Positions 4,589 to 20,322 of a DNA stretch of 64,000 nucleotides are shown here, piece by piece. How positions within the stretch are numbered: position 1 is the stretch's first letter; the number at the start of each line of letters is the position of its first letter. Below the pieces are notes generated by a model. It made no database searches and was not told the DNA's origin. It was given only the letters and a program-made list of their open reading frames with translations. Origin of the DNA: an uncultured Acidobacteriota bacterium (lineage in GTDB: Bacteria; Acidobacteriota; Vicinamibacteria; Vicinamibacterales; 2-12-FULL-66-21); assembly GCA_963774855.1 (NCBI GenBank), contig CAVZGT010000005.1:298714-362713 (forward strand). The letters run 5' to 3'. Made by a program: the position numbers and the translations under genes.

Positions 4589-4595
4589 CAGCAGC

Positions 4596-7253
4596 ATGAT
4601 CCGCGGCAAACACGCACTGGACGGGCTCGACCAGGACATCCGCGAACACATCGAGCACGAAACTCAGGACAACATCGACCGGGGCATGACGCCCGCGGAG
4701 GCGCGCCGGCACGCGCTGCTCAAGTTCGGCAACATCGCGCTCGCCGCCGAGGACACGCGCGCCGTCTGGATGTGGCCACGGCTCGACGAGATGCGGCAGG
4801 ACATCGGCTATGCGTTCCGGACCCTGCGCAGGAATCCCGGGTTCGCGGCCGTCGCGGTCCTGACGCTGGCGCTCGGCATCGGCGCGACCACCGCGATCTT
4901 CAGCGTCGTGTATGCGACGCTTCTCAAACCGCTGCCCTACACGAACCCGGACGAGCTGGTAGCCATGTCCGTGTACATCCCGCAGTTGCAAGCGAAGTTC
5001 CCAAGCATGCCGGTCCGCCCGGTTGATTTCGAAGAGTTTCGTCAGTCGAACAGCGTGTTCTCCGGTATGGCGGCGATTCGCGAGCGGGATTTCAACCTCA
5101 CGGGGGGCGGCGAGCCGGAGCGATTGTACGGCGCCCGCGTCTCCGCGAGTCTGTTTCCGTTGCTGGGCGTGCAACCCCAGCTCGGACGCACCTTTCTGGC
5201 GGAGGAGGACACGCCGGGGCGCGATGCGGTCGTGCTGATCAGCCATCACTTGTGGACCAGCCGCTTCGGCGCCGACCAGGAGGTCGTGAACCGGACGCTT
5301 TCGCTGGATGGACAACCGCACGTCGTCGTCGGCGTCATGCCGGCGGGATTCCTGTTTCCGGCCGGAAAGCAGCTCCACAGCCACGTCGAGCTCGGCCCAC
5401 GCATCGACGTGTGGAAGCCCATGGCGTTCACCCAGAGCGAGCTGGCCCCCGAGAACATGAACCAGTTCAATCGGGGTGTGATGGCACGCCTGAAGCCTGG
5501 AATCTCACGTCAGGAGGCGCAGACCAACCTGGATGCGATCGCCCAACGCATCGGAAAAGGAATGCCCGCGACGATCCCTGGAGGGGTCGACGTCGATCTG
5601 CGCACGAGGATTGTGCCGATTCGCGACGTCTTTGCCCGCGACGTCCGACAGGGCCTGGTGATGCTCATGGGCGCGGTCGGATTGCTGCTCGTGATCGCCT
5701 GCGTCAATCTTGCGAACCTGCTGCTGGCGCGGCTGAGCAGCCGATCCCGGGAACTGGCCACGCGTGCGGCGGTAGGTGCATCTCGCGGCCGGCTGATGAG
5801 GCAATTGCTCACCGAGAGCGTGGTGCTGGCGACGCTCGGGGGTGCCGCCGGGCTCCCCGTTGCGATCTGGGGTACCGCCCTGCTCTTGTCGTTCGGCCCG
5901 GCCGATTTCTCGACGGCCGAGTCGATACCGCTCGGCCTTCCGGTGTTCCTGTTCGCGATGAGCGTGGTCCTCGGTGTCGGACTCGCGGTCGGGCTCATCC
6001 CGGCGCTCTCGATGGGCCGTGCCAACCTGCCGGGCAATCTCACAGAAGGCGGCCGTGGGATGAGCGCAGGCAGGCGAACGGGTCACCTGCGCCGGGCGCT
6101 CGTCACGGCTGAAGTGGCGCTGTGCGCATTCCTGCTGGTGGTCGCGGGTCTCTTGCTCCGCAGCTTTGTGAACCTGATGGATGTGAACACGGGATTCGGG
6201 GTCGAGCGAGTGCTTTCCGTCGATCTCGCGTTATCGGGAGAGCGGTACGGGGGCAGTCAAACCGTCGCCTTCTATCGAGATCTGCTCGACACCGTACGGG
6301 CACTGCCTGGCGTCACATCCGCGGGAGCCATCAATATCCTGCCACTGACGTCCCAGGCCGAAGGCAACGTCACACCGATCTATCTCGAGAGCGACACCGA
6401 GCAGCGGCTCGATGGGCCCGTCGCGCAGTATCGCATCGTGACCCAGGGATATTTCGCGTCCATGGGCATTTCACTCGCGGCGGGCCGATTGTTCGAGACG
6501 CAGGAGCCCGCATCCGTGATTATCGTCACCGAGGCGCTGGCACGGGGGCTCTGGCCGGGTGTCTCGATGCCGAGCGTTGTCGGCCGGCGCGTTCGGATAG
6601 GCGAGGTCACGGACGATCCCGTCGCCATCGCGGGCGTGGTTGGCGATATTCGGGCGGCCGCGCTCGACCGCGAACCCACGCCGGCGATCTACGTGCCGCA
6701 TACACGCAACCGAGTGCAGGCGATGACCCTCGTGATTCGCACGGCCCGCGAACCAGAGACGATCGCCGCGGCGGTCCGCGCCGAGGTGTGGAACCGCGAT
6801 ACTGCCGTTCCGGTCACCGTGAAGACGATGCGCGACATCGTGTCGGCTTCGGTCGCGCCGCGCAGGTTCCAGATGGTCATGGTGCTGCTGTTCGCGACGC
6901 TCGCGCTCGGTCTCGCGCTGATCGGCGTCTACGGTGTCACGAGCTACGCGGTGGCGCGTCAAACCAAAGAGATCGGCGTCCGTATCGCATTGGGCGCCCA
7001 ACGCCCGGTCCTGTTGCGGTCCGTGCTGGCGCAAGGGCTGCGACCGGTTGCGGCCGGCCTTTTCCTTGGCCTGCCGGCCGCCGTTGCGGCGGCGACCGCC
7101 ATGCGGAGTCTTCTGTTCGGGATTGGGCCGCTGGATCCCGTTGCTCTCTGCGTGACGTCGGTTGCGCTGCTGGTTACGGCGGCGATAGCGTGTTACCTGC
7201 CTGCTCGGCGTGCTGCACGGGTCGATGCTGTGGTCGCACTTCGCGCCGAGTAA
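4596..7253 (+). CDS. ADOP-type MacB/FtsX-family permease
   Basis: ORF 4518..7253. ATG 4596 lies 8 nt after the padR stop. Leader: MIRGKHALDGLDQDIREHIEHETQDNIDRGMTPAEARRHALLKFGN. TM1: AAVAVLTLALGIGATTAIFSV. A large periplasmic domain and two FtsX-type TM blocks follow (TKEIGVRIALGAQ .. VDAVVALRAE end). Confidence 0.9.
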   Translation: MIRGKHALDGLDQDIREHIEHETQDNIDRGMTPAEARRHALLKFGNIALAAEDTRAVWMWPRLDEMRQDIGYAFRTLRRNPGFAAVAVLTLALGIGATTAIFSVVYATLLKPLPYTNPDELVAMSVYIPQLQAKFPSMPVRPVDFEEFRQSNSVFSGMAAIRERDFNLTGGGEPERLYGARVSASLFPLLGVQPQLGRTFLAEEDTPGRDAVVLISHHLWTSRFGADQEVVNRTLSLDGQPHVVVGVMPAGFLFPAGKQLHSHVELGPRIDVWKPMAFTQSELAPENMNQFNRGVMARLKPGISRQEAQTNLDAIAQRIGKGMPATIPGGVDVDLRTRIVPIRDVFARDVRQGLVMLMGAVGLLLVIACVNLANLLLARLSSRSRELATRAAVGASRGRLMRQLLTESVVLATLGGAAGLPVAIWGTALLLSFGPADFSTAESIPLGLPVFLFAMSVVLGVGLAVGLIPALSMGRANLPGNLTEGGRGMSAGRRTGHLRRALVTAEVALCAFLLVVAGLLLRSFVNLMDVNTGFGVERVLSVDLALSGERYGGSQTVAFYRDLLDTVRALPGVTSAGAINILPLTSQAEGNVTPIYLESDTEQRLDGPVAQYRIVTQGYFASMGISLAAGRLFETQEPASVIIVTEALARGLWPGVSMPSVVGRRVRIGEVTDDPVAIAGVVGDIRAAALDREPTPAIYVPHTRNRVQAMTLVIRTAREPETIAAAVRAEVWNRDTAVPVTVKTMRDIVSASVAPRRFQMVMVLLFATLALGLALIGVYGVTSYAVARQTKEIGVRIALGAQRPVLLRSVLAQGLRPVAAGLFLGLPAAVAAATAMRSLLFGIGPLDPVALCVTSVALLVTAAIACYLPARRAARVDAVVALRAE

Positions 7254-7494
7254 CCACGAGGGCCCGGGCTGTCACCACCCTTCGCTCCGGTTCCGGGCGA
7301 AGGTTGTCCGCCATAGCTTTCAAAGCACTTCAATCATCGTCCTGGACATTCTTTGCGATTAACCGCGTGTCGCGCCATGTGTGCGTCACCGAGAGGCTCT
7401 GGATGGTGGAAGATAGAGGACAGCAACACCTTTGACCAACGACCACGCGTCTGTCCTGAAGAGGTTGCTCAGCACGATGGATCGTGAGGGCGCA

Positions 7495-9124
7495 ATGAAG
7501 TCGTTCAATCTGACTCTACTCTCCCTGATGCTGCTGGCTGCGTCCCCGGCCTCCGCCCAGCCGCATCAGCACCAGGCTGCGGCGCCGCTGCCGCCCGATG
7601 TTGCCCAACCGATTCACCTCTACAAGGCCGGGCTGGGCATCTTCTCGCGCAAGATCACGACGTCGAATCCCGAAGCGCAGGCGTTTTTCGATCAGGGGTT
7701 TCAGCTGATGTACTCGTTCGCCAGGCGCGAGGCGATCCGGTCCTTCCGGGAAGCGTGGCAGCGGGATGCCGGTTGTGCCATGTGCTACTGGGGTGAGGCG
7801 TGGGCCTGGGGGCCGAATCTCAACGAGCAGATGGTTGCGGAGCAGTCGGGCTTCGCCTACGCCGCCATCCAGAAAGCCCTCGCGGTCAAATCGACGGCGT
7901 CCCCCGTCGAGCAGGCGTTCATCGACGCCATGGCTGTGCGGTATGTCGAGACCTTCGATGCATCGCCACGGATCGATCGGGACAGGGCTTATGCCGGGGC
8001 GATGGGCCAGGTCTACGAGAAATATCCCAACGACCTCGACGCGGGAACGCTCTACGCCGACGCGTTGTTCCTCCTCGAGCCGCGCCCCGGGCCGGCCCCC
8101 GGACGGCGCCCACGGCTGTCGAACCTCGACGCGCCCAACACCAGGCGCATCCACGAAGTACTGGAAGCGCTGCTCGCTCGAGACCCGAGACACCCCGGGG
8201 CCTGCCACTGGTACATCCACGCGACCGAGGCGACGTCGAAGGTCGGCCAGGCACAAGCGTGTGCCGAGTACCTCGGCAAGAGCATTCCGGGCGCCAGCCA
8301 CATCAATCACATGCCGTCGCACACGTTCAACGAGGTCGGGCGCTGGGGTGATTCGGTGCGTGCCAACATCGAGGCGTGGCATTCGGATCTCAGGGCCGTT
8401 GCCGGCGAGGCCGTCGCGATTTACCCGACGCACAACCTCCACATGCTGGTCTACGCCGCGTCCATGGACGGACAAGGCGCCCTCGCGATGCAGGCAGGCA
8501 AGGACTACGCGAAGTTGACCGGCAATACCGGTTACCAGGCGCTCACGATGATCCGCTTCGGGCGTTTCGACGAGGTGCCGGAGGTCACGAAGCCGCCGCG
8601 AGGGGACATTGCCGGGGCGATGTGGGAATTTGCGCAGGGCTATGCCTCGCTTCGCGCCGGCCGTGAAAACCCGGCGCGGGAGTCACTGATGCGGCTGCGG
8701 AGCGCGGCGGAGACGTCGCAGGAGACTTTCTCGTCGGCGCGCCATCCGGCGCCGCGCCTTCTCGGCCTGCTCGCAGGCATTCTCGAAGGAGAAATCGCAC
8801 GCACCGCGGGCGAACATGGCGGCAGCACGTGCCGCGTTCGAACGCGCGGTGGCGTTGGACGATGCGCTCGACGTCGACGAACCCGAGCCGATTCCGTTTC
8901 CGGCGCGGCACTGGCTGGGCGCCCTGCTGCTCGAAACCGGCAGTCACGCGGACGCCGAGCGCGTGTACCGCGAGGATCTGAAGGAGCATCCACACAACGG
9001 GTGGGCGCTGCTCGGGTTGCAGAAAGCACTGGCCGCCCAGGGCAAGCCGATCGGCGATGTCGACGCCGATCTCGAGCGCAGCTGGAGCAGGTCGGATACG
9101 TGGATTCGCGCGTCGCGGTTCTAA
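7495..9124 (+). pseudogene. secreted helical-repeat (TPR-like) protein, one frame break near 8810
   Basis: Signal peptide from ATG 7495 (MKSFNLTLLSLMLLAASPASAQ). The sequence then reads AQAFFDQGFQLMYSFARREAIRSFREAWQRDAGCAMCYWGEAWAWGPNLN.. up to ..GEIARTAG. After that the listed ORF turns Arg/Gly-rich. The sensible continuation is ORF 8816..9124 in the next frame: MAAARAAFERAVALDDALDVDEPEPIPFPARHWLGALLLETGSHADAERVYREDLKEHPHNGWALLGLQKAL. The break sits at GGG 8808-8810. Confidence 0.7.
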
Positions 9125-9161
9125 ACGTCAATCCGGCCAATCCTGTAAGATCGCGTTGTCC

Positions 9162-9560
9162 ATGCGCCGGCTCTACGTCCGTCTGACGACCGTAATCTTG
9201 TGCGCGTCGGTCGCCGCGTGCGGATCGCGTCTGCTTCAGATCACGGCGATTCAGCTCGGCCGGGCGTTGAATCCTGACCGCTCCGTCTCCGAGTTCACCA
9301 CCGTCTTCACGCCGCAGGAGACCGTCTACTTGTCCGTCCTGACGACGGGCGGCGGATCCGGAACGATCAGCGTACGCTGGACGTACGGTGGAAAAGTCGT
9401 GGGTGAGCCAAAGAAGCACGTGGCGGACCGGGACGTCGCGGCGACCGAATTCCCGCTGCAAAGCGCCGGAGGACTTCCACCCGGGCCATACACCGCCGAA
9501 GTCTTTCTCGACGGGAAGTCCGTCGGCACGAAAACGTTCCGGGTTGAGGGAAGCCGCTGA
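9162..9560 (+). CDS. small lipoprotein, function unknown
   Basis: Within ORF 9057..9560. ATG 9162 gives MRRLYVRLTTVILCASVAACGS, a signal peptide with a lipobox Cys. About 130 aa, beta-rich. Confidence 0.6.
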   Translation: MRRLYVRLTTVILCASVAACGSRLLQITAIQLGRALNPDRSVSEFTTVFTPQETVYLSVLTTGGGSGTISVRWTYGGKVVGEPKKHVADRDVAATEFPLQSAGGLPPGPYTAEVFLDGKSVGTKTFRVEGSR

Positions 9561-9563
9561 GAT

Positions 9564-9661
9564 TGGGTTCCACTGGGTTCCGCTGGGTTCCACAGGGTTC
9601 CGCAAGGTTCTGTTCCGCACGGTTCTGTTCCGCTAGGTTCCAGGTTCGGTTCCGCGCGGAA
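9564..9661. repeat. 10-bp phased GGTTCC tandem array ending in a 12-bp palindrome
   Basis: tgGGTTCCac tgGGTTCCgc tgGGTTCCac agGGTTCCgc aaGGTTCTGTTCCgc acGGTTCTGTTCCgc taGGTTCC aGGTTC GGTTCCGCGCGGAA. Units are 10 bp or 15 bp. The terminal TTCCGCGCGGAA is a perfect palindrome. It lies between convergent genes. A second homologous array is at 28113-28225. Confidence 0.85.
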
Positions 9662-9672
9662 GCCGCAGCGAA

Positions 9673-11217
9673 TCAGGTTTCGGCGCCGTAGGAGATCTGC
9701 ATGCGCCGGACGGCGAGACTGGCGATCCACAGGACGAACGCGGTCAGGAGCAGCAACCCGAGAATCGCACCTGGCCGCGAGGCGGGAGCGGCGGGCGCCG
9801 CCAGCAGCCGGATCAGCATCGGGGCGTCATCCTCCATCGGCGCGGGCACGGGACACAGGGACTGCAGGTAGTACAGGATGCTCATCTTCTGCAGCACGTG
9901 CGGAAGGATGCCGTTGACCCCCTCCCAGGCGAGCAGCACGGCCGCCGGGATAATCGGATTGCGGACGTACAGCCCGACCGCGAGAAAGACGCTCCCGTAG
10001 CCGACGCAGCCGAGCACGGCAGCCGTCGCATACCAGAAAAAGTGTCCCATGCCGCCGGCATTCCAGTACGCCTGGACTTCGACCGCATCGTGCGGCCAGA
10101 CCATGGCCGCAAGCGCGAGCAGGGCGCCGCCGCCGAAGATCACGGAGGACGCAATCAGCCCGGCCGCGTACTTGCCGGCGAGGAGCACCTCGCGCCGGGC
10201 CGGCGCGAGAAACCAGAAGTGCAGCGTCCGGTTGCTCATCTCGCCCTGGAAGAGATACATGAAGATGCCGAGACAGCCGAAGAAGATCGCGAGCCGCAGG
10301 TAGAAGTACTGGAAGATCCCCGCGAAGATCATCCGGTCCTCTTCGAATACGAGCAGGGTGTTGATGTTCCTGCGCTCCAGCTTGCCGTCGGCGAACCGGA
10401 GCCGCGCCTCCCGCCGCCCGTCGAAGTAGACGATCTCGCGATACTCGGTCCGCTCCTCGGTGAACCCGGCGCCCGTAGACGAGGCCGCCGTGCTGAACAC
10501 TTTTCCGTCGCTGCTCACCTGGATGTTGAAGTCGCGGGTGTCGGAGTCCTCGTTTTCGCCTCCCGCACTGGCGTGCTTCACGACGAAGCGCGTCACCGGA
10601 CGAACCGCTCCCAGATCGACCTGCAGGAACAAGGGCCGGTCTTGAGCGCACCATCTGTCGAACTGGCCACCCGCCACGGTGCCGTTCACGGCCTTCTCCG
10701 GCCCCTGCTCCGGGCTGCACGGCGCACTTCCAGTGGCGGGACGATCGAGCGCGAGATTCACCCGTCCATCCGGGCCGTAGACCTCGAACTCGTAGATCCT
10801 GGCCACCGGCTCCCCGCTGTAGGAAGGACGGGTGATGTTCAGGCGGACGAAGCGGGCGTCGGCCTTCGGCTCGATCACGTGGGTCGTCGTCCCCGCATTC
10901 CCGGCGCGTTGCCGGACGCGGCGGACCCGCACCCCCGCCGAGTATTCCTCGGCCGGCTTTCCCAGCCGATTCTTCACGTCATCGGGCGTTTCTCCCTCCC
11001 GGACGCTGTCCATCAGCGCCGGGGGAATCACGCCGCGCCGGGTCAGCCGGTCGCTCCGGAACTTCGCATCGAGACCGTGCCCGAAGAAGATCACCGCGGG
11101 CAGGAGCGCCAGCGCGTAAACCCAGAGCGAGCGCTTGGCGAAGAAGGCTCGCCGGAGCTCGAGCTTCGCGATCGTCCACGCCTGCCTGGCCCTCCCCCGG
11201 AAAGAACTCGGGGTCAC
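9673..11217 (-). CDS. ABC-2 type transporter permease with an inserted extracytoplasmic discoidin (F5/8 type C) domain
   Basis: 514 aa, GTG start 3 nt after the upstream stop. N-terminal TM: SLWVYALALLPAVIFFG. Discoidin-like motifs: ARFVRLNITRPSYSGEPVARIYEFEVYG, then NLALDRPATGS..AVNGTVAGGQFDRWCAQDRPLFLQVDLGAVRPVTRFVVKHA..FNIQVSSDGKVF. A C-terminal polytopic ABC-2 block follows (IFQYFYLRLAIFFGCLGIFMYLF .. ILGLLLLTAFVLWIASL). Confidence 0.8.
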   Translation of the reverse strand: MTPSSFRGRARQAWTIAKLELRRAFFAKRSLWVYALALLPAVIFFGHGLDAKFRSDRLTRRGVIPPALMDSVREGETPDDVKNRLGKPAEEYSAGVRVRRVRQRAGNAGTTTHVIEPKADARFVRLNITRPSYSGEPVARIYEFEVYGPDGRVNLALDRPATGSAPCSPEQGPEKAVNGTVAGGQFDRWCAQDRPLFLQVDLGAVRPVTRFVVKHASAGGENEDSDTRDFNIQVSSDGKVFSTAASSTGAGFTEERTEYREIVYFDGRREARLRFADGKLERRNINTLLVFEEDRMIFAGIFQYFYLRLAIFFGCLGIFMYLFQGEMSNRTLHFWFLAPARREVLLAGKYAAGLIASSVIFGGGALLALAAMVWPHDAVEVQAYWNAGGMGHFFWYATAAVLGCVGYGSVFLAVGLYVRNPIIPAAVLLAWEGVNGILPHVLQKMSILYYLQSLCPVPAPMEDDAPMLIRLLAAPAAPASRPGAILGLLLLTAFVLWIASLAVRRMQISYGAET

Positions 11218-11220
11218 GAG

Positions 11221-12192
11221 TCACCGCCGATCAGATATTCGTACAAGCGCGTCGACGTTCTCGTCGGCCGGCACCACGCTCTCGATCCTGTGGCCGTCGA
11301 GCGCGATCCGTCCGAGCGCCCGGGCAAACTGCTCCCGGTCCCGTGTCATCACCAGCATCCCGAGGTGATCGCCGTGCAGCTTGATCTCGGTGATGTGGTC
11401 CTCACGGAACAGCTGCGCGGCCACGCCGGATGCGTTCCGATCGCGGCACCGGACGATGTACTGGCTGGGATGCTCATCGATCTCGTCGCGCACGTCGCGG
11501 ATCTTCCCTTCGGCCACGATCATCCCGTTGGCGATCAGCACGACCTGGTCGCTGATCAGATCCACCTCCTGCAGCACGTGGCTCGAGAGGATGACGTGCT
11601 TCCCGTCGGCTGCCCAGGCGCGGAACAGATCGATCGTCTCCGCGCGCACCAGCGGGTCGAGGCCGTTCAGCGGCTCGTCCAGCACCAGCACGGCCGGATC
11701 GTGCGCGACGGCCTGCGCCAGCCGCACCCGCTGCCGCATGCCCTTGGAATACGCCGCGACCTTGCGGTTCGCCGCGTCGGTCAGGCTCACGCGCTCGAGC
11801 GCCTTCCACGCCCGTTCCTCCGCTTCCGATCGCCCGTAGCCGAAAAGCAGCAGCCCCGTCGTGATGAAGGTGAACCCGGTGGCCCAGCGCGGCGCGGTGT
11901 CGTACTGCGTGGCGTATCCCGTTATCCGCATCAGCGTTTCGGGATCGCGCGGGGAGATCCCGCGCACGAGGATGCGGCCGTGGTCGGGGAAGATCAGCCC
12001 GGTCATCATGTTCATCAGCGTCGTCTTGCCGGAGCCGTTCGGCCCGACCAGGCTCGTGATTCCCGGGGGGATGTTCAACGTGACGCGGTTCACGCCGAGC
12101 ACCTCGCCGTAGAACTTCGAGACCTCGTCAAAAATTACTCCGGGGGGCTTTTGCTCGTGCGCGGCCGCCATCGGGAGATGGTCATTGCTCAT
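11221..12192 (-). CDS. ABC transporter ATP-binding protein
   Basis: The real start is ATG 12192 (MSNDHLP..), overlapping the upstream stop in an ATGA. Walker A GPNGSGKTT, signature YSKGMRQR, Walker B VLVLDEPLNGLD, H-loop SSHVL. The 591-aa listed ORF has a spurious N-terminal extension. Confidence 0.9.
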   Translation of the reverse strand: MSNDHLPMAAAHEQKPPGVIFDEVSKFYGEVLGVNRVTLNIPPGITSLVGPNGSGKTTLMNMMTGLIFPDHGRILVRGISPRDPETLMRITGYATQYDTAPRWATGFTFITTGLLLFGYGRSEAEERAWKALERVSLTDAANRKVAAYSKGMRQRVRLAQAVAHDPAVLVLDEPLNGLDPLVRAETIDLFRAWAADGKHVILSSHVLQEVDLISDQVVLIANGMIVAEGKIRDVRDEIDEHPSQYIVRCRDRNASGVAAQLFREDHITEIKLHGDHLGMLVMTRDREQFARALGRIALDGHRIESVVPADENVDALVRISDRR

Positions 12193-13049
12193 CGGACCAC
12201 CTCGACGGGCCGCAGCTTGCGTTCGATCACGAGGACGAGCAGGACAACGTAGACCGCCAGCGCCAGTATGGATGCCACCGCCCCCGGACCTTCGAGCGGG
12301 TCCACGCTCAGCAGCGCGGCCCACACCCGGTTGACCGCCCAGGCCGGATTCATAACGCGCCCCCACGTCACGCGGAAGACTTCGTCGATCATCGCGGACA
12401 TGCCGGCCAGGATGAAGAAGAAGGCGAGGCTGACCCCCCCGGCCACGACCCTCCACTTTACGTATGCGGAACTGGCCATCGCCACCAGGCCCAGAACCAG
12501 CAACCAGAGAAGGAATCCCACCACCATGCCGGCACCCAGCGTCCAGTTCGCCAGGAACCACCAGCCGCCGGCCAGGCCGACTTGCAGTCCGAAGAGAAGG
12601 AGGCCCGGGATCCACGTGACGACCGACAGCATGCCGATGATCACGGTCAGCCGCGCCAGGGCGTAGCTCCAGCGCGTAAGGGGCCGGCTGAAATAAAGAG
12701 GAAGCGCGTTGTTCGCGAGGTCCGGCGCCACCAGCCCGGGGCCCGCCAGCGCCGCGAGGAAGACCGCGCAGGCCCCCTGGACGTACATGAAGATCGAGAA
12801 GAACCTGCCGTCGACCTGGATGAACGCGCGAAACTCCGGTTCGAGCCCCTGGAGCAGATCCACATGATTGGTGAGATAGACGAAGCCGGCGCACAGGAGG
12901 GGCCAGACGAACGCCGCCATCGTGAGCAGCAGCACCAAACGCTGCTGATAGAGCCGGCGCCAGGCATAGCTCGGAAGGACCATGAACCGCGTCCACCGTC
13001 CCGTGAGCGGTCCGGCGTACCGCTGATATCCCCGCTTGTAAACAGCCAT
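12189..13049 (-). CDS. ABC-2 family-like polytopic membrane permease
   Basis: 286 aa with about six hydrophobic spans (LVLLLTMAAFVWPLLCAGFVYL, ACAVFLAALAGPGLV, LTVIIGMLSVVTWIPGLLLFGL, GMVVGFLLWLLVLGLVAMA, GVSLAFFFILAGM, ILALAVYVVLLVLVI). Translationally coupled to the downstream ATPase. Confidence 0.65.
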   Translation of the reverse strand: MAVYKRGYQRYAGPLTGRWTRFMVLPSYAWRRLYQQRLVLLLTMAAFVWPLLCAGFVYLTNHVDLLQGLEPEFRAFIQVDGRFFSIFMYVQGACAVFLAALAGPGLVAPDLANNALPLYFSRPLTRWSYALARLTVIIGMLSVVTWIPGLLLFGLQVGLAGGWWFLANWTLGAGMVVGFLLWLLVLGLVAMASSAYVKWRVVAGGVSLAFFFILAGMSAMIDEVFRVTWGRVMNPAWAVNRVWAALLSVDPLEGPGAVASILALAVYVVLLVLVIERKLRPVEVVR

Positions 13050-13053
13050 TAGT

Positions 13054-13140
13054 CAGCTTCCGGCTTCCAGCTTCCCATTTCCAAGTTCCAGGATTTCAGT
13101 TTCCGGCTTCCTGCGGGGAGCTGGGAGCTGGGGGCTGGGA
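13054..13140. repeat. heptad NNNTTCC tandem array followed by near-complementary GGGAGCT heptads
   Basis: cagcTTCC ggcTTCC agcTTCC catTTCC aagTTCC .. agtTTCC ggcTTCC, then GGGGAGCT GGGAGCT GGGGGCT GGGA. It spans the ATPase stop (13096) and the spacer before the permease start (13049). Confidence 0.7.
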
Positions 13141-14076
13141 GGTGGCTGACAGGTGGCCCATGGCTTTCAGGAAGATCTCCTCCAGCGTATCGCGGCGGTG
13201 CGTGAGCTTCCTCACCAACAGGTTCTGCTGCGCGGCGAGCCCCCAGACGGCTTCGACTTCGACTCCCGCCGGCAGGACGATACGCCAGCGCCCGCCGCCT
13301 TCGGAGACACCCTCGGCGCCGATCTCCGGCAGAGACGCCCTGAGGTTCCGATCGTCGCCCGTCACCTCGAGCTCGACGAAGTGCCTGTTCGACCGCCGCT
13401 CTTCTTCAAGGTTGCACTGGTGCACGATCGCGCCGTCCTTCATGATCACGGCCTCGTCGCACACCTGCTCGATGTCGCGCAGCAGGTGGGAGCAGACGAG
13501 CACGTTCATCCCCTGCTCCTTCTTCATGTCGACGATGAGCTTGAGCATCCGCCGGCGAGCGGCAGGATCGAGCCCGTTGGTCGGTTCGTCCAGCACGACC
13601 AGCTCCGGCCCGTGAACGATCGCCTGGGCGAGCTTGGCCATCTGCTTCATCCCGTACGAGTAGGTCCGCAGCTCGCGGTAGCGCGCCTCCCCCAACCCTA
13701 CGTGGAACAGGACCTCGTGCGCCTGCTCGAGCGCAGCCTTCGGCGGGAGGCCCGAGAGCTCGGCCATCTGGCGCAGGAAGGTGACCGCCGTCATCTCCCC
13801 AACGAACGAGTCGTTCTCGGGCATGTAGCCGATTCGCGACCGGGCCTCGCCCATGTTGCGCCGGCAGTCCAAGCCGAGGATACGGGCGCGTCCGGCGCTG
13901 GGCTTGAGAAACCCGAGCAGCGTCAGAATCAGGGTGGACTTGCCCGCCCCGTTGGGCCCCAGCAGGCCCACCGCGTTTCCGGTGCCCGAAACGCCGAGAC
14001 GGCAGGTGATCCCGTGGAGGATCTCCCGCCGTCCCAGTTTCACTTTCAGGTTCTCGAGTTCGATGACTGGTGTCAT
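13096..14076 (-). CDS. ABC transporter ATP-binding protein
   Basis: ORF 13096..14082 begins at a TTG. ATG 14076 gives MTPVIELENLKVKLG. Walker A GPNGAGKST, signature YSYGMKQM, Walker B LVVLDEPTNGLD, H-loop CSHLL. The last ~15 codons (PPAPSSPQEAGN) run into the heptad repeat, so the true stop is slightly uncertain. Confidence 0.9.
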   Translation of the reverse strand: MTPVIELENLKVKLGRREILHGITCRLGVSGTGNAVGLLGPNGAGKSTLILTLLGFLKPSAGRARILGLDCRRNMGEARSRIGYMPENDSFVGEMTAVTFLRQMAELSGLPPKAALEQAHEVLFHVGLGEARYRELRTYSYGMKQMAKLAQAIVHGPELVVLDEPTNGLDPAARRRMLKLIVDMKKEQGMNVLVCSHLLRDIEQVCDEAVIMKDGAIVHQCNLEEERRSNRHFVELEVTGDDRNLRASLPEIGAEGVSEGGGRWRIVLPAGVEVEAVWGLAAQQNLLVRKLTHRRDTLEEIFLKAMGHLSATSQPPAPSSPQEAGN

Positions 14077-14084
14077 TCTCAATC

Positions 14085-14105
14085 GAGGGGCTTCGCCCCT
14101 CGAGC
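14085..14105 (-). promoter_or_regulatory. intercistronic stem-loop between the anti-sigma and ABC genes
   Basis: TCGAGGGGC-TTC-GCCCCTCGA: a perfect 9-bp GC-rich stem with a 3-nt loop. It lies 4 nt after the anti-sigma stop and 8 nt before the ATPase ATG. No U-tract follows. Confidence 0.5.
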
Positions 14106-14109
14106 TCCC

Positions 14110-16708
14110 CTACACGCTCGCTCCCGCCTCCGCCAAGGCTACGGCGGGCAAGCGCGAGATCCTTTTCAAGTCTCGCCCCGCTCCGCCCTGGCCACCGTAG
14201 CGCGCTAGATAACTCGACAATCTTCCCGACACGGCCGTCACTGGCGTGGGACAGCGCCGGATGTGTCCCAGGGTCGCTCCGCCCAGGCTCTGGATCAGCA
14301 TCACGTCCATGATCAACCCGGTGATACGAGTACGGCTGGCCGCGTGGATCTGTTCCGCCGTTCCATCGAACACTACGAGAATCGGATCGTGCCCGGCCAC
14401 AAGTTTCTCGAGCGCCGGGCTGGGGGCCAGCACCGACAGGAATCCGAGGGCCCCCTTCGTGTTCAGCCAGCCGAAGGCGGACGGGTGGAGTCCGGCAGAC
14501 GACGGGAGCTGGCCGAGGAAGTCCGGCGACCAGACCAGTTGGGAGCCGCCGTTCCGAGTCGCGATGGCACGCGCCGCAACCGCGCGATCCGAGCCCGCCA
14601 CCATGTAGCCCCGATCGTACGTCCAGGTGATGGCGAGCGGAACCCCTCCTGGTTTGATCGTGCTCCACGTCTGTCCGCCCGCGGTCTCCTGCTCGATCAC
14701 GATCCGCTTGCCCTGCTCGTCGGGCCCAAGCTCCGCGTTGAACGTTTCCACCAGCTTCTGGAGGGAGCTGTCGATGACCAGCGGGTTGTTCGCCACGGCC
14801 GCCATGACCCATGCCGGGCCGGTGGCCGAGAGTCCCGTCACCGCCAGGGCCGCTTCGGTCCCCAACGCCGCGGTCAGGTTCTGGATGAAGCCGGCGCCGA
14901 GCTTCTCGTCCATCGAGGCCAGGCCGCGTTCGAAATCCGGCTCCGCCCTGGTGATTTGTGCGGTGAACTCCTCGAAGAGCTGCAAGGGCTCGCGGGTCGA
15001 CACGTAGCCGGCGAGGAGGGCATCGGCCGGCAGATACTCCGCCGCGCCGCCGGAGCCGGCGTCAGCCAGCCACGACCCCATTCCCTTTCGTGCCCCCTGG
15101 AACGCGAACGTGACCTCGTTCTCTTCCGCACCCGCAGGAGCACGCTGCTCGAGGAAAAGGTACTTCACCCCGATCATGCCGGCGAGCTCGACTCGGCTCG
15201 TCGTTGGACCCCATCGCGACCAGGGGGGGCGCATCGATCCCGATGAGCCAGCCCACGCCGCGCCGGTACCGCTCCCCGATGGCTGCCGCAAACGGTGACC
15301 CGGCGCCCTGCCCCACGTGAGCGAGGGCCCACGCCAGGTGCGACGGCGAGTTCGAAACGACCATCAGGTCGTCGGAAACCGAATACGGTGCGGAAGACTC
15401 GCCCGCCTCGGCGAAAAGCCCTTCCAGGGCGCTCGCGAGCTCCGCCCGCTTGCCGGGCTGCACCCGGGCCAGCACAATCGGCACAGGGCCGTCTATTCCA
15501 GCGGGCCCGAGGACGCTGGCAGAGAAGACGATCTCGTCGCCGAGCAGCGGGGTCACCGACTGGACGCGGTCGGCCATTTGCCTCATCAGCCGTCCCGTCT
15601 CGGAATTCAGCCAGGCCCCGAACGTCGCGTTCTGGGCCCCCTGCTCCTCGGCGAGGGCCAGGGCCCGGCCAATCGTGATGCCGGGATTCGGGACCGTGCC
15701 GTAGACGACCGCCCCTGCGGGAAGATACGGGAGCAGGGCCGAGGTGGTCCGCAGCTCGGCGGGGAAATTCGCAAGCTCGCGTTCGATCTTCACGAGCGAC
15801 CCGAGCAGCTCCAGGTAGTACTCCGCCTCGGGGCTCCAGGAGACCGCGGCCGCTGCCGAGCTCGCCAGCGCCGGGATAGAGGCGGCCTGCTGGCCGGGGC
15901 TGAGGACCACTGCCCTGCCGGGCTGGTTCACCAACACGGATCCCTCGACCACCGAGACCACCGAGCCGCCCATCCCGGACGACACCGCGAAGACGGTTCC
16001 TTTCACCGAGGCGATGGAATCGTGAGTCAGAACCCGCAGGCGGCCCCGGCGCTGCTTGGCGGCCTTGACGATGATGTCACCGCGCTGGAGGTGAATCGCC
16101 TGGCCGCTCCAGGCTGCGGTCACGAACAGCTCCGTTCCCTCGTTGACATCCACCATCGATCCGTCGGCGAGGCGCAACACGGCGTGGGCTCCCGGGCCCG
16201 TGCGGACCGACTCCCGTTCGCCGATGGCGGCGCCTGCTTCGAGAGAGCCCGCGGCCAGGCGGTACACGCCGCCGCCGGCGGAAACGACCGTGGCCCGCGG
16301 GCCGCCCGGCGCCATCATGGCGTCGATGGCGTCGCGTCCCAGATAAAGGACCGACAAGAGCACTGCGGCTGCCGCGGCCATCGCTCCCCATTGCCGGAGG
16401 ACCGGTTGCGCCCAGCGCGAAGAGGACCGCACTGGCATGGCGAGGACCGTCTTCTCACCCTTCATCTCGGCGATCCGGGTGCGACAGCCGGGGCAGCGGC
16501 TGAGATGGTCTTCCACCAGGGTGCGGCGGCCGACGCCCAGCTCCTTGGCCAGATACGCGCGGAAGTCCTGCCGGAACTCCACACAGGTGGCGCCGCCGGC
16601 GTTCGTCACGTTTTCCCAGACGCGCGCCCGCGCGGTCCCGAGCGTGCCGGCGTCCACGTCTTCATCTTTCATTTCCTGTAGCGCTCGTTCCAGATGCTCG
16701 TCGGACAT
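14110..16708 (-). pseudogene. anti-sigma factor (zf-HC2, TM, FecR domain, long C-terminal domain), one frame break near 15190-15229
   Basis: ORF 15062..16708 has CVEFRQDFRAYLAKELGVGRRTLVEDHLSRCPGCR (zf-HC2), a TM (WGAMAAAAAVLLSVLYL) and a FecR-like block (AVLRLADGSMVDVNEGTELFV..IASVKGTVFAVSS). It degenerates after ..LVAMGSNDEPS. ORF 14110..15291 continues sensibly from ..SRVELAGMIGVKYLFLEQRAPAGAEENEVTFAFQG. The two overlap by 230 nt in different frames, and a G7 run lies at 15223-15229. Confidence 0.7.
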
Positions 16709-16787
16709 CGCCGACCTCCTTCTTGACCGGGTGCGGCTTCCGTGTTTCGGGGAGCCAGCCTGGTGAATACCGACGGGTTACTGGTGT

Positions 16788-17315
16788 CTAGCGCTCCATC
16801 TCGGCTTGAAGCCGATGCCGGATCCGGTGGAGCCTGACGGCCACGTTGTTCTTCTCGATCTCGAACATCCCGGCCAGCTCTTCGAGCGACAGCCCTTCGA
16901 CGTGACGCAGCAGGAACAGGCTTGCGTCCTCGCTGTCCAGGGCGGCAATGGCGCGCCGAAGCCGCTCCTTCAGCAGAAAAGGTGACTGGACGGCGGCGTG
17001 CGGCGCCCGATCGTCGTAAACCGACTCCGCGTGAAGCTCCCGGCGGCGCAGCACGTCGACGGCCGCGTTGACGGCGGCGCGCCGGAAGTAGGCGGCCGGC
17101 AGCGCAACCTCCTCGACGTCTCCACCCCGGGCCAGCACGCGCAGGAAGACCGTCTGCAGGACGTCCTCGGCGTCGGCCGGACGCCCGGTGACGCGCAGCG
17201 CCGCGCGGAATACGGTCTCGTAATGGCGCTCGAACAGTTCGGCAAACCCCGCCAGCGGGGCCGTGGAAGTCACGGGAATCAGCAGTTCCTCGATTTGTGT
17301 GCTGGCTGTGGTCAC
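16788..17315 (-). CDS. ECF (sigma-24 type) RNA polymerase sigma factor
   Basis: 175 aa, GTG start. Region 2: FAELFERHYETVFRAALRVTGRPADAEDVLQTVFLRV. Region 4: LSLEELAGMFEIEKNNVAVRLHRIRHRL. The anti-sigma gene follows 80 nt downstream. Confidence 0.9.
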   Translation of the reverse strand: MTTASTQIEELLIPVTSTAPLAGFAELFERHYETVFRAALRVTGRPADAEDVLQTVFLRVLARGGDVEEVALPAAYFRRAAVNAAVDVLRRRELHAESVYDDRAPHAAVQSPFLLKERLRRAIAALDSEDASLFLLRHVEGLSLEELAGMFEIEKNNVAVRLHRIRHRLQAEMER

Positions 17316-17336
17316 CTCGTCCGCCTTACCAACCTA

Positions 17337-17363
17337 GACGCACGAGGAGGGCGACTATTACAC
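17337..17363 (-). promoter_or_regulatory. candidate ECF-type promoter (27-nt motif, copy 1)
   Basis: The minus strand reads GTGTAATAGTCGCCCTCCTCGTGCGTC, ending 21 nt before the sigma GTG. AAT..N16..CGTC spacing resembles the ECF AAC-N16/17-CGT architecture. It matches 20323-20349 at 23/27 positions. Confidence 0.4.
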
Positions 17364-17365
17364 CT

Positions 17366-17767
17366 TTATTTCGCTTTCGCGGCTTTCGCGGCGTCGACCC
17401 TGGCGTGGCCCCGCACGACGCCGTCGCGCTCGCCGGCCATGTCGCCCTGCAGACGTCCCTTGACGATCGTCAGCGTGAACTTGAACAGCGGGCCGTCAGG
17501 CTGTTGTACCTCGAACGTGGCCTTGCCGGCGTCGACAGCGCCCTTTTCGACCTTCCACTGTCTGTCGGGCGGGCCCGCGGTGCCGGTCAGCGCCTTCCCC
17601 TCCTGCGTCAGGTCGAACGCGACCGGGCGCGGATCGCCCTCGGTGCCATCGGTGCGCTGCATCTTGAATTCGCCCTCCCACTTGCCCGTGAAGTCGGCTG
17701 CAGTCTGGGCGGCGCCCGACGGTGCGAGCGCGAGGAGGACGATGGCGGCAACGACAAGTTTCTTCAT
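17366..17767 (-). CDS. small secreted protein, function unknown
   Basis: 133 aa. Signal peptide MKKLVVAAIVLLALAPSGAAQ, a beta-rich body and a Lys/Ala tail. GGAGAA RBS upstream. Confidence 0.6.
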   Translation of the reverse strand: MKKLVVAAIVLLALAPSGAAQTAADFTGKWEGEFKMQRTDGTEGDPRPVAFDLTQEGKALTGTAGPPDRQWKVEKGAVDAGKATFEVQQPDGPLFKFTLTIVKGRLQGDMAGERDGVVRGHARVDAAKAAKAK

Positions 17768-17822
17768 TACGGTTTTCTCCTAGGCCAGGAACTAGAGCCG
17801 GTTTCAAAACCGAAGGTGGCAT

Positions 17823-20261
17823 CTATTCACTGCGCAGTGCAACAAGAGGATCGACTCGCGAGGCGCGCCGCGCCGGTATGTAGCTCGCGACGAGCGCCAC
17901 CGCAAGCATCACGGCGGACATTCCGGCGAACGCCATCGGGTCCAGGCGCCCGACACCGAAGAGCAGCGTCTGGATATAACGAGTGAGGGCCACGGCAGCC
18001 AGCGCTCCCACGACCACGCCAACCAGCGCCACCCGGGTGCCTTGCCAGACGAACATCCGGCGCACGGTCTTTGCCTCGGCGCCCAGGGCCATGCGTACGC
18101 CGATCTCCTGCGTCCGTTGCGTCACGCCGTACCAGAGCACGCCGTACAGGCCGACCGCACCAAGGACCAGCGCGAGCACGGCGGCAATGCTGACCATGAC
18201 CATCGTGAACCACAGACTGGCCATGGCCTTGGCGGCCAGAGCCTCCATCGTGAAGATCCGATACATCGGGGAGTTCGGAACCACCTCCCGAATGATGGCG
18301 CGAACCTCCGGGGCCAGTTGGTCGGCACGGGCCGACTTCATCACGTAGGCCGGCGACGTGGACGCACCCGGCAGGTAGACCATCGGCTCCGGAGACTTGC
18401 GGCGGAGGTCGTCCACCAGGATGTCTTCGACCACGCCGATGACGGTGAACCACGTATCGGCGCCGGCGGTGGCCGGTCGCACCTTTTGACCAATCGGCTC
18501 TTCGCCAGGGAACAACGTCCTGGCGGCGGTCTCGCTGATGATCACGTTGCGAGTTCCCAGCTCTTCCTCCATCCGCTCGAAATAGCGGCCGCTCCTGAGT
18601 GCGATTCCCATCGTCTGGAAATATGCGCCGCCGGCGGCGGCGTTCCGAACGAGAGGTGCCTCCGCTCCACTCGCCTGAATCCTGGGGGTTGTGACGTTCG
18701 CGCTGCCCGCGCCCTCGTCCAGCGGCAGCGTGGAGATGAATCCAACCGATTCGACGCCGGGCAGGGCCTTCAGGCGATCCATGAACACGTACTGAAACCG
18801 CGAGATCGATGCACGATCGGTCAGATCGGGGCGGCCCGCCGCGATCTGGAACGTGAAGATTCCTTTCGTGTCATATCCGGCGTCGACTTGGCTGAGCTGC
18901 CAGACGCTGCGCATGAGCAGCGCCGCGCCAACCAGCAGGACGAGAGCCGAGGCGGTTTGCACCGCTACGAGCGCATCGCGCGCAAGGCTTCTGCGGCCGA
19001 CGATGCCTCGTCCGGCCTGCTGGAGGCTGCCGAGCCGCGAGCCCGACAGGCGGAAAGCGGGCAGCAGGCCGAACGCGCACGCGGCCAGGACCGAGAGGCC
19101 CGCGGTAACGAGCAAGGCCGTACAATCGAGGTGCGCGGCGGCGAGCCCGGCAATGGGTGCGCCGGCAAAGCCACCCGCGACCGCATCCGGCGCCGCGCGG
19201 ACCAGGAGTGGGACCCCGGCCCACGCGATGACCGCGCCAACCGCGCCTCCGGCTGCCGCGAGCAGGAGCGCGTCGGTCACTTGCGGGCGCACCAGGTCGG
19301 CTCGTCCCGCACCGAGAGCCCGGCGCACTGACAGTTCGACGCGCCGGTTCTCCGCTCTGACCGTGAACAAATTCGCCACGTTGACACAGGCGACGAGGAA
19401 GACGATGCCGACCGTGCCGAGCAGAATCCAGAGTGCCGTCGAGATCCGGCCCACGAGTTGCTCGCGCAGCGGCTTCACCACCGGCCGGTGACGTTCCATG
19501 ATCCGCACGTACGGCGCGGGTCCGCCCAGCCGCTGCTGCACCTGACGCGCGATCGGTTCGAGCTGCGCGACCAGTGCTGCGCGGTCCGTTCCCGGCTTCA
19601 TACGCGCCACCATGCGCGGCCCGAATCCGCCCGGCGTGACCTGAGCGGCGCGAATCGCCAGCGGCACCCAGAACGCGACGCGCTCGTCGGGGAAGCGGAA
19701 CTCCGGCTTCATGATGCCGATCACCTCCCGGTTCTGGCCCGCGAAGAAGTAGCTCTTGCCGATCACCTTCTCATCGGAGTTGAACCAGTTCTGCCAAAGC
19801 CAATAGCTGATGACGACGACGCGACCGTCGTCGGTAGCGGCAGGCAACCGGCCACGGAGAGGCACCGCGCCAAGCGTCGTAAAGAATGAGGGAGTGGCCT
19901 GAGTGACGAAGAGCTGGTCGACCTGCCCTTCCGCGCGTGTCGTGGACGAACCGATGCCATAAATGCCGGCGTCTTCGATCCCGGGCACGCTCTCGCGGTA
20001 CGCGAAGTAGAGCTCGTCCGGAACGCCGAACTCCTCGGGCTGATCGGTTCCCGGAGCGGTCCCTCCAATATGAACGAGCCGATCCGCATTCGGGAACGGC
20101 AGCGGCTCGAGGAGCACCGCCTTGACGACGCTGAAGATGGAGGCGTTCGCGCCGATGGCGAGCGCGAGCGTCGCCACGACGGTCAGCGTGAAGCCCGGCG
20201 TGCGGCCAAGACTGCGCGCCGAGTGCCTGAAGTCCCTGACCCACGATTCCACTGCCTTCAC
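17823..20261 (-). CDS. ADOP-type MacB/FtsX-family permease
   Basis: 812 aa, GTG start. MKAVESWVRDFRHSARSLGRTPGFTLTVVATLALAIGANASIFSVVKAVLLEPLPF.. TQEIGVRMALGAE .. VDPLVALRSE. Confidence 0.9.
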   Translation of the reverse strand: MKAVESWVRDFRHSARSLGRTPGFTLTVVATLALAIGANASIFSVVKAVLLEPLPFPNADRLVHIGGTAPGTDQPEEFGVPDELYFAYRESVPGIEDAGIYGIGSSTTRAEGQVDQLFVTQATPSFFTTLGAVPLRGRLPAATDDGRVVVISYWLWQNWFNSDEKVIGKSYFFAGQNREVIGIMKPEFRFPDERVAFWVPLAIRAAQVTPGGFGPRMVARMKPGTDRAALVAQLEPIARQVQQRLGGPAPYVRIMERHRPVVKPLREQLVGRISTALWILLGTVGIVFLVACVNVANLFTVRAENRRVELSVRRALGAGRADLVRPQVTDALLLAAAGGAVGAVIAWAGVPLLVRAAPDAVAGGFAGAPIAGLAAAHLDCTALLVTAGLSVLAACAFGLLPAFRLSGSRLGSLQQAGRGIVGRRSLARDALVAVQTASALVLLVGAALLMRSVWQLSQVDAGYDTKGIFTFQIAAGRPDLTDRASISRFQYVFMDRLKALPGVESVGFISTLPLDEGAGSANVTTPRIQASGAEAPLVRNAAAGGAYFQTMGIALRSGRYFERMEEELGTRNVIISETAARTLFPGEEPIGQKVRPATAGADTWFTVIGVVEDILVDDLRRKSPEPMVYLPGASTSPAYVMKSARADQLAPEVRAIIREVVPNSPMYRIFTMEALAAKAMASLWFTMVMVSIAAVLALVLGAVGLYGVLWYGVTQRTQEIGVRMALGAEAKTVRRMFVWQGTRVALVGVVVGALAAVALTRYIQTLLFGVGRLDPMAFAGMSAVMLAVALVASYIPARRASRVDPLVALRSE

Positions 20262-20322
20262 CTGCCACCTCGTTGATTCGCCGTTGATTCATCGGGAGAC
20301 TTCGTCCCGCCTCAACAGCCCT

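Follow-up and report, generated by a model that had tools for sequence, protein, structure and literature searches.

A conserved ECF sigma factor operon of soil Acidobacteria encodes a putative double ABC-2 transporter with a permuted discoidin domain in a permease loop

We analysed a 64,000-nucleotide (nt) stretch, hereafter the window, of contig CAVZGT010000005.1 from an uncultured Acidobacteriota bacterium (assembly GCA_963774855.1), focusing on an operon that encodes a sigma factor with extracytoplasmic function (ECF), an anti-sigma factor and two pairs of ABC transporter ATPases and permeases (Table 1). An earlier, sequence-only reading of this region had listed seven co-directional genes. 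There are six, which are read as seven open reading frames (ORFs) since the anti-sigma gene is frameshifted and split in two; the proposed linkage of an ECF sigma/anti-sigma pair to a double ATPase–permease ABC-2 set was borne out by gene content and domains. Junction sequences are tight or overlapping across the operon: the ATG of ATPase2 overlaps the stop codon of permease1 (ATGA), and permease2 starts three bases past the stop codon of ATPase2. The spacer between ATPase1 and permease1 (13050–13095, reverse strand) is a run of short GGAA-containing repeats (CTGGAACTTGGAAATGGGAAGCTGGAAGCCGGAAGCTGA). Scanning the operon region for intrinsic-terminator-like and sigma-70-like sites gave none beyond chance, and an Rfam scan of positions 9000–21000 gave no match. 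PADLOC returned only partial ATPase-fold matches for the two ATPases and none for the other five proteins; as this is generic ATPase similarity, a known anti-phage defence system was rejected.

The operon is conserved across soil Acidobacteria (Vicinamibacterales). The same six-gene order was found in every related Acidobacteriota locus with sufficient flanking DNA, down to ~60% permease identity (related loci and proteins are cited below by L and P numbers). Permease2 has more than 3,000 database homologues. The best 120 listed are 81–100% identical to it and are named 'hypothetical' or 'F5/8 type C domain', except for one COG-style NosY label (P0038). Clustering of the homologues at 50% left one full-length representative, indicating that permease2 forms one tight family. 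When species-representative genomes were scanned with permease2, 334 matches were obtained, and the best 80 of these, at 59–88% identity, all came from Acidobacteriota metagenome-assembled genomes (MAGs), many of them named Vicinamibacterales. Within the operon the ATPases are the most conserved genes (73–96% identity to relatives) and the anti-sigma factor is the least conserved (41–94%). One MAG (CAWJKZ01) contains two discoidin-bearing permeases (L057 and L058), each 67% identical to the window protein, possibly reflecting a paralogous second operon.

The first transmembrane segment of permease2 (TM1, residues 30–50) is followed by a loop of ~248 amino acids (aa) and then by five further hydrophobic segments. 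In agreement with the sequence-only reading, which had placed an insert of ~250 aa with a discoidin fold after TM1 of the last permease, this loop matched Pfam F5_F8_type_C (PF00754) above the cut-off (residues 162–260, E 1.3e-13, 51.6 bits versus 28.2). The native match spans only positions 3–94 of the 127 of the profile. The last strands, absent from this match, are found upstream of it, around residues 111–148; the lone C-terminal discoidin strands noticed there previously (ARFVRLNI...IYEFEVYG) are real. Canonical strand order over the full ~127-position profile is not present in the native sequence. When residues 105–149 were moved behind residues 150–251, the score rose from 54.8 bits (profile positions 3–96) to 65.0 bits (positions 3–126 of 127), with the moved residues supplying positions ~95–126, whereas the sequence that natively follows the discoidin core added nothing to the Pfam match. 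The protein P0128 has three discoidin repeats in tandem; a single BLASTP alignment with it (131 aa, 51% identity, E 3e-40) extends from the tail of one repeat over the boundary into the next, and the cut point falls in the loop '...TVxxNTASVTTH...' of the canonical repeat. The first suggestion had been of a truncated or permuted tandem, and both the end-to-end match of the un-permuted sequence and the alignment across a repeat boundary agree with it. Judged at the sequence level, the domain is shown to be a circular permutant taken from a tandem CBM32-like array.

Its nearest discoidin relatives (45–54% identity) are repeats on GH92 glycosidases, S8 subtilases and CBM6 proteins, where they would typically act as carbohydrate-binding modules, and the PDB sequence matches of the permease2 alignment were CBM32/discoidin domains only (for example, 2xqx and 4zz5). 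All 78 family members that we examined carry the module. Cys167 and Cys190 are conserved in 77 and 78 of them, respectively, and this conserved pair is compatible with a disulfide bond in the periplasm. On average, the members are 72–75% identical to the window protein in the discoidin, 58–65% in the surrounding loop domain and 84% in the membrane domain, a pattern that shows the module to be under purifying selection. We consider it most likely that the module binds a sugar moiety, of a transported substrate or of a glycan in the envelope.

A second, host loop domain accommodates the discoidin within one of its hairpins. In several homologues without discoidin (348–374 aa), the loop consists of a domain of ~100 aa in which the motif G-M-x-x-x-x-V-x-x-L-G-x-P is followed by strands. 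Matches of four related loop domains to BamE (PF04355) remained below threshold (22.3, 18.4, 14.2 and 13.5 bits versus 23.2), with E values of 0.0019 for P0124 and of 1.1e-4, 0.037 and 0.063 for excised loop domains; DUF2845 matched one of them at E 0.005. On this basis the host domain is probably BamE-like.

Table 1. Features of the operon and its upstream neighbours (positions in the window).
Feature	Position	Strand	Basis or remark
Second ECF promoter copy	20323–20348	−	62 nt before ADOP permease gene
ADOP-family (MacB-like, duplicated) permease	17823–20261	−	TIGR03434, 735.5 vs 622.3
Small secreted protein, 133 aa, signal peptide-like N-terminus	17366–17767	−	Travels with ADOP gene
ECF-type promoter motif TGTAAT-N16-CGTC (TGTAATAGTCGGCCTCCTCGTGCGTC)	17337–17362	−	21 nt upstream of sigma start codon; ~20–25 nt for TGTAATAGTCGGCCTCCTCGTGCGTC
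Six-gene operon: sigma, anti-sigma, ATPase1, permease1, ATPase2, permease2	17315–9673	−
ECF (group IV) sigma factor, 175 aa	16788–17315	−	Sigma70_r2 and Sigma70_r4_2 above cut-off
Anti-sigma N-terminal part (zf-HC2, one TM, FecR, first half of periplasmic sensor)	15192–16708	−	Out-of-frame run-on to 15062
Anti-sigma frameshift site, net 5-nt deletion	15192–15197	−	tblastn frame switch and DNA alignment
Anti-sigma C-terminal sensor part (weak DUF3352)	14262–15195	−	Listed ORF 15291–14110
Repetitive extragenic palindromic (REP)-like intergenic repeat, read through by anti-sigma ORF	14083–14204	−	Contains 9-bp hairpin
ABC ATPase1, 326 aa	13096–14076	−	Pfam ABC_tran, E 9.6e-27
Permease1, 286 aa, six hydrophobic segments, short loops	12189–13049	−	Hydropathy
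ABC ATPase2, 323 aa	11221–12192	−	Pfam ABC_tran, E 1.6e-26
Permease2, 514 aa: N-in amphipathic helix, TM1, ~248-aa periplasmic domain, TM2–6	9673–11217	−	Hydropathy
Host periplasmic loop domain, residues 51–104 and 252–296, probably BamE/SmpA-like	10330–11067	−	Discoidin nested inside
Permuted discoidin, first piece, residues 105–149 (last strands of canonical domain)	10771–10905	−	P0128 alignment
Permuted discoidin, second piece, residues 150–251 (N-terminal three quarters of domain)	10465–10770	−	Pfam

At the other end of the operon, the sigma factor consists of regions sigma-2 and sigma-4 within 175 aa, as expected for group IV (Sigma70_r2, 45.6 bits versus a cut-off of 24; Sigma70_r4_2, 41.2 versus 25.7). 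It also matched the NCBIfam sigma70-ECF superfamily model TIGR02937 (79.9 versus 42.9), and no equivalog was reached. Of 40 orthologous upstream regions, 39 contain the TGTAAT hexamer of the motif that precedes it, with an unchanged distance to the sigma start. Across related loci the motif occurs once per locus before sigma and never in the spacer between anti-sigma and ATPase1; in the window we found two matches versus 0.10 expected. Its AAT-N16-CGT arrangement is of the AAC/AAT-N16–17-CGT type that ECF promoters typically have. The anti-sigma gene begins 79 nt downstream of sigma, after a GAAGGAGG ribosome-binding site, and directly follows sigma in all loci. The conserved sigma promoter, the lack of a copy before ATPase1 and the tight gene spacing all speak for one autoregulated operon; the six genes would apparently be co-transcribed from the sigma promoter.

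The anti-sigma factor has the features of a class I zinc-binding (zf-HC2) anti-sigma, namely an HxxxCxxC motif followed by one TM. The zf-HC2 model scored 23.1 bits in the window protein (versus 22.2) and matched 28 of 29 orthologues, and H68-x3-C72-x2-C75 and C42 are invariant in all 29. Pfam FecR (PF04773) matched at E 1.2e-15 in the window and in 29 of 29 orthologues; in a model of an orthologue, this part was matched by Foldseek to the PDB entries 4m0h and 6ovk (PupR) with a probability of 1.00. The zf-HC2, TM and FecR assignments of the first reading thus stood, but the ~550-aa domain that it could not assign can in part be assigned, weakly, to DUF3352 (PF11832). This model reached 26.2 bits in the window, below its cut-off of 26.8 and covering only positions 36–213 of 536, and matched 17 of 29 orthologues at E ≤ 0.01. 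The same Foldseek search of the PDB found the FecR part only, leaving the ~530-aa remainder without a credible fold match, and a profile search of the PDB with the anti-sigma alignment gave only weak FecR or anti-sigma-domain matches. No TonB_dep_Rec, Plug or STN domain was found among the genes called within ±8–10 kb in L001, L002, L083 and L084, nor is there a TonB-dependent receptor among the ten largest ORFs of the window. The classical partner of FecR is therefore missing from the neighbourhood.

The anti-sigma gene had been taken for a single ORF of ~865 aa. Instead, it consists of two overlapping ORFs in different frames (16708–15062, 548 aa; 15291–14110, 393 aa), and the length was further inflated because the final ~45 codons run into repeat DNA that is absent in relatives. 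A tblastn search with an intact 820-aa orthologue located the change of frame between positions 15197 and 15192, and a DNA alignment with four relatives revealed a net 5-nt deletion near 15195. The N-terminal part is 77% identical to residues 1–506 of this orthologue and the C-terminal part is 81% identical to residues 510–818. By comparison, the anti-sigma gene is a single intact ORF in 52 related loci (805–880 aa, mostly ~817 aa). A second apparent frameshift lies in an unrelated gene (7432–9124, forward strand; 584-aa ORF), where the codon-position GC phase switches at ~8780 and the ORF 8816–9124 (forward strand) carries on the gene in another frame, which suggests either indel errors in the assembly or several pseudogenes. 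In view of this nearby frameshift and of broken alignments in several related MAG loci, we consider an assembly error at least as likely as a true pseudogene for the anti-sigma lesion. Were the lesion genuine, the local copy would be a decaying cluster, with a system that is either dead or constitutively on. The net 5-nt deletion is not a homopolymer slip and the anti-sigma frame also runs into the repeat element, both of which speak for decay; against this, the other five genes are intact and 82–96% identical to their relatives, while the second frameshift, 6 kb away, and the broken MAG alignments favour assembly indels. Decay of the local copy is a serious alternative, but we think it unlikely.

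The catalytic motifs are complete in both ATPases: Walker A, Walker B (DE, including the catalytic glutamate) and an H-loop, with signature motifs YS[YL]GM (ATPase1) and YSKGM (ATPase2). Their nearest solved relatives are the nucleotide-binding domains (NBDs) of ABCA7, ABCA3, ABCA1 and ABCA4 (1e-49 to 1e-45), and NosF (1.5e-39). Permease1 had no Pfam match in the window, and its orthologues in L083 and L086 matched ABC2_membrane_2 weakly. The ABC-2 Pfam score of permease2 was 20.6, below the cut-off of 27.2, which its relatives P0124 (30.7) and P0130 (36.5) pass. As the ATPases are nearest to ABCA NBDs and NosF and relatives match PF12679, the best reading is that of an ABC-2 (type V) system with two predicted ATPase–permease modules. 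The first reading had left room for an already known gliding or exporter family; the NCBIfam models GldA, PmtA/C, DrrA and NodI all remained far below their cut-offs for both ATPases (DrrA subfamily model, 190.7 and 177.6 versus 312.45). We rejected the gliding transporter GldAFG (GldA, 160.2 and 144.5 versus 402.6; no GldF or GldG identifiable by Pfam among the neighbours), PmtABCD (PmtA/PmtC, 94.1 and 107 versus 350 and 375) and NosDFY, as no nosD, nosL or nosZ is present in the operon or its conserved flanks. A forward-strand ORF at 2219–4102, ~5.5 kb from the operon, has a right-handed beta-helix and a NosD Pfam match (28.7 bits versus 23.6); its proximity is probably coincidental, since it is not conserved beside the operon in L001 or L002.

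These data also bear on whether the four proteins form one machine. Two independent homodimeric ABC-2 transporters could instead share the operon, as each permease comes after its own ATPase, both ATPases have full catalytic motifs, and the two permeases have no significant profile similarity (hhalign of permease1 against the membrane part of permease2, E 0.19). However, all four genes are kept together in every locus, including the distant locus L086 that has only the ABC core, and this constant retention argues for an obligate set; we regard two separate pumps as rather unlikely.

The sequence-only reading had also noted a perfect 9-bp stem-loop at 14085–14105 and had proposed that it separates the regulatory and transporter halves of the operon. 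The hairpin (TCGAGGGGC-GAA-GCCCCTCGA) exists, but lies at 14083–14103, 6 nt before the ATPase1 start; the window contains no second copy, and chance alone would give 0.01 matches. The proposed role did not hold up. Among relatives, the distance between anti-sigma and ATPase1 extends from −17 (overlapping genes) up to 199 nt, with roughly half of the relatives at ≤ 26 nt, and the hairpin is the second arm of a GC-rich two-hairpin repeat of ~75 nt (...GAGCGTGTAGGGGAG-TCCGAGGGGC-GAA-GCCCCTCGG). Repeat sequence of ~45–120 nt recurs at the sigma/anti-sigma, anti-sigma/ATPase1, ATPase1/permease1 and permease1/ATPase2 junctions; it was found at operon junctions and elsewhere in ~30 loci, mostly in the sense orientation, and is missing from the anti-sigma/ATPase1 junction of L001. 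A conserved attenuator was rejected on these grounds, namely the variable spacer and the dispersed nature of the repeat, which is not conserved at this junction. The repeat is also present in L003, L004, L009, L017, L034, L081, L082 and others, at ~4500, 7000–7200 and 9030–9080, and the two-hairpin unit often stops a few bases short of a start codon. Like REP elements and bacterial interspersed mosaic elements (BIMEs), it consists of short GC-rich hairpin units scattered between operon genes; the difference is that the sequence family here is specific to these Acidobacteria and matches no Rfam family. Elements of the REP/BIME type can change the relative expression of flanking genes in E. coli. 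The REP-like element is not a constant part of the system, although it may influence expression locally here.

Upstream of the operon, the second copy of the promoter motif precedes a gene for an ADOP-family permease. This distal copy retains the upstream context that is found before sigma in L004, L005, L008 and L082, and also a degenerate copy of the sigma 5′ leader, so that the ADOP gene and the adjoining small-protein gene look as if they had been inserted between the promoter and sigma, the promoter being duplicated in the process. Similar promoter duplications accompany insertions in L002, L016 and L034, and L015 also has a second promoter copy. In seven of 82 loci an ADOP orthologue accompanies the operon, either within it or on its upstream or downstream side, and orthologues of the small secreted protein, for which family libraries and PADLOC gave no match, adjoin the ADOP orthologue in L002, L016, L034 and L044. 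The ADOP permease has probably been recruited to the regulon in this lineage, which hints that the regulon is able to recruit MacB-like permeases. In all, the window has four duplicated MacB_PCD/FtsX permease genes in 64 kb (4518–7253, forward strand; 17823–20261, 20416–23202 and 44760–47258, reverse strand); the first two were confirmed as ADOP (TIGR03434), and no adjacent ATPase gene was seen for any of the four.

Such associations could point to a pump for antimicrobial detoxification or immunity, in which efflux is switched on once the sigma/anti-sigma pair registers that a membrane-active peptide or antibiotic has damaged the envelope, with the discoidin only tethering or orienting the complex. 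ECF-controlled ABC and MacB-like systems have parallels in Firmicutes (sigma-W, YknWXYZ). An ADOP permease lies behind a duplicate of the same promoter in the window, L002 and L016, ADOP orthologues lie inside or beside the operon in four further loci, and the better-scoring models for the ATPases include those of the DrrA type, of lantibiotic protection and of PmtA/C, each of them below its cut-off. Yet the ADOP link is confined to those seven of 82 loci, ADOP genes are numerous in this genome anyway (four in the window), and efflux of peptides would leave a glycan-binding module under purifying selection unexplained. We consider this explanation improbable.

Variants of the operon help to separate its layers. 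In L083, the same six-gene operon encodes P0124 (368 aa, 54% identical), a permease2 without discoidin, next to an anti-sigma factor with FecR and a faint DUF3352. In L084, P0148 (574 aa; 8001–9725) has, at the loop site of the discoidin, an unrelated beta-rich insert of ~220 aa with no Pfam match, and the protein in the anti-sigma position (902 aa) likewise has no Pfam matches, neither FecR nor DUF3352; the type of anti-sigma sensor and the loop insert of permease2 may thus co-vary, in a single case. Finally, P0184 (348 aa, 37% identical) belongs to a four-gene ABC core that stands alone in L086 (5290–9047), adjoining dnaA and without sigma or anti-sigma. This series suggests that the ABC core is the oldest layer, to which ECF control and then loop inserts would have been added in that order.

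The same variants bear on a very doubtful proposal, in which the FecR-type anti-sigma, rather than sensing a free ligand, reads the state of the permease2 periplasmic domain and the pump is both sensor and output, a scheme likened to the FecR/TonB-dependent transducer and BceS/BceAB, where the regulator reads the transporter state: anti-sigmas of the FecR type normally depend on a partner transporter, no TonB-dependent receptor was called near the operon (L001, L002, L083, L084) or seen among the ten largest window ORFs, and in L084 the different permease insert goes with the different 902-aa anti-sigma, but this co-variation is a single case and the ABC core of L086 occurs without the sigma/anti-sigma pair. 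Improbable as it is, such a scheme would have the lectin-bearing domain replace the TonB-dependent transducer and pass the glycan occupancy or transport activity of the pump straight on to the ECF sigma. Cell-surface signalling would then be coupled to a transporter in a new way, in a soil phylum that is abundant and little studied.

We somewhat favour, at slightly better than even chances, the interpretation that the conserved operon senses an envelope signal and responds through an induced ABC-2 pump with a glycan-binding periplasmic module. The single-pass anti-sigma factor would keep the ECF sigma at the membrane via its cytoplasmic zinc-finger domain, as is known for the family, and an extracytoplasmic cue would be received by the periplasmic FecR and ~530-aa DUF3352-like domains. 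The freed sigma would then transcribe the whole operon from the observed TGTAAT-N16-CGTC motif. The induced ATPase1–permease1 and ATPase2–permease2 pairs would most likely assemble into one hetero-complex, acting as an exporter or extractor, in which the TM1–TM2 loop of permease2 exposes a small domain, probably BamE-like, to the periplasm. Where the discoidin is present, in a lineage made up mostly of Vicinamibacterales, sequence comparison shows that this loop domain gained the nested, permuted CBM32/discoidin from a tandem array. The module would bind the sugar of an emerging amphiphile (a glycolipid or lipid-linked glycan) or an envelope glycan that positions the pump. The surface-glycan or envelope-stress export/sensing device that had been proposed at the outset is plausible in this light.

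Several observations weigh against this interpretation. The discoidin is an accessory feature, since the orthologous operon of L083 does without it, and no glycan-synthesis genes consistently adjoin the operon in L001, L002, L083 and L084. The window anti-sigma is frameshifted, meaning that the local copy may be deregulated or the assembly wrong. The assignment of permease1 to ABC-2 is only a weak one, and no profile match links the two permeases. Structure prediction was also poor: AlphaFold2 gave a mean predicted local distance difference test (pLDDT) score of 55.3 for an intact 817-aa anti-sigma orthologue (101-row alignment) and of 52.6 for full-length permease2 (26-row alignment), where the discoidin part alone reached 70–86. 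A Foldseek search of the PDB with the permease2 model gave nothing usable, the best relevant match being a galactanase with a discoidin module.

The operon occurs in hundreds of related genomes and thousands of metagenome proteins, none of which has a functional name, and the Vicinamibacterales are a soil group that is hardly tractable. The well-defined promoter motif provides a handle for regulon prediction, and the soluble loop domain of ~250 aa one for ligand screening on glycan arrays. The natural series of permeases, whose loops have a discoidin, some other insert or none, lets one ask what inserts add to an ABC-2 pump, and the discoidin itself is a clean natural case in which a domain was circularly permuted on being cut out of a tandem array and then nested within another domain. 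Current views are not overturned, as ECF-controlled transporters and lectin modules on glycan transporters are already known themes. Among the remaining genes of the window, 58417–62727 (forward strand) encodes a 1436-aa protein with a Ser/Thr kinase, an adenylate/guanylate cyclase domain, an AAA_16 ATPase and TPR repeats.

The arrangement had been put forward as one not known to be characterised, and family libraries, solved structures and the literature that we searched contained no description of it. Literature searches on DUF3352, on permuted discoidin/CBM32, on discoidin with ABC-2, on Vicinamibacterales with ECF and on ADOP returned nothing on this system. The main text of the ECF reclassification paper (PMC7826278) mentions neither discoidin nor ABC-2.

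Its parts nevertheless resemble several known systems. As in FecI/FecR-type signalling (PupI/PupR and Bacteroides pairs), the partner of the ECF sigma is an anti-sigma that crosses the membrane once and has a periplasmic FecR domain, here matching PupR (6ovk) and the BDI_1681 anti-sigma (4m0h), and autoregulation is likely; our system differs in having no TonB-dependent transducer nearby, a zf-HC2 cytoplasmic domain, the extra ~530-aa DUF3352-like domain and a linked ABC-2 transporter. ABCA1, ABCA3, ABCA4 and ABCA7 share with it the nearest NBDs by sequence and a large domain between TM1 and TM2, but here the subunits are separate, bacterial and half-size, and the small, probably BamE-like loop domain with its lectin insert is not homologous to the extracellular domain of ABCA proteins. 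The likeness to NosDFY lies in the NosY-like label of P0038, the PF12679 matches and the presence of NosF among the nearest solved ATPases, and NosDFY is likewise an ABC-2 machine, working through a periplasmic partner. In contrast to NosDFY, the operon has two ATPase–permease pairs under ECF sigma control and lacks nosZ, nosD and nosL. PmtABCD, the Staphylococcus exporter of phenol-soluble modulins, has the same ATPase–permease–ATPase–permease order, but comes from a different phylum with a different regulator and no loop domain, and its models score far below their cut-offs.

The built-in carbohydrate-binding module of the Wzm/Wzt O-antigen ABC-2 exporter recognises its glycan substrate; in Wzt this module is cytoplasmic, at the C-terminus of the ATPase. 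The system described here has an ABC-2 transporter with a candidate carbohydrate-binding module in common with Wzm/Wzt, whereas its module, a permuted discoidin and thus different in fold, is built into the permease and predicted to face the periplasm. With the tandem CBM32/discoidin arrays of secreted hydrolases and proteases it shares 45–54% identity, the cysteine pair and core motifs; unlike them, it holds one domain-length, out-of-register segment, a circular permutant, in the loop of a membrane transporter. The components and their logic are familiar, and the operon is a variant built from known parts rather than a new kind of system.

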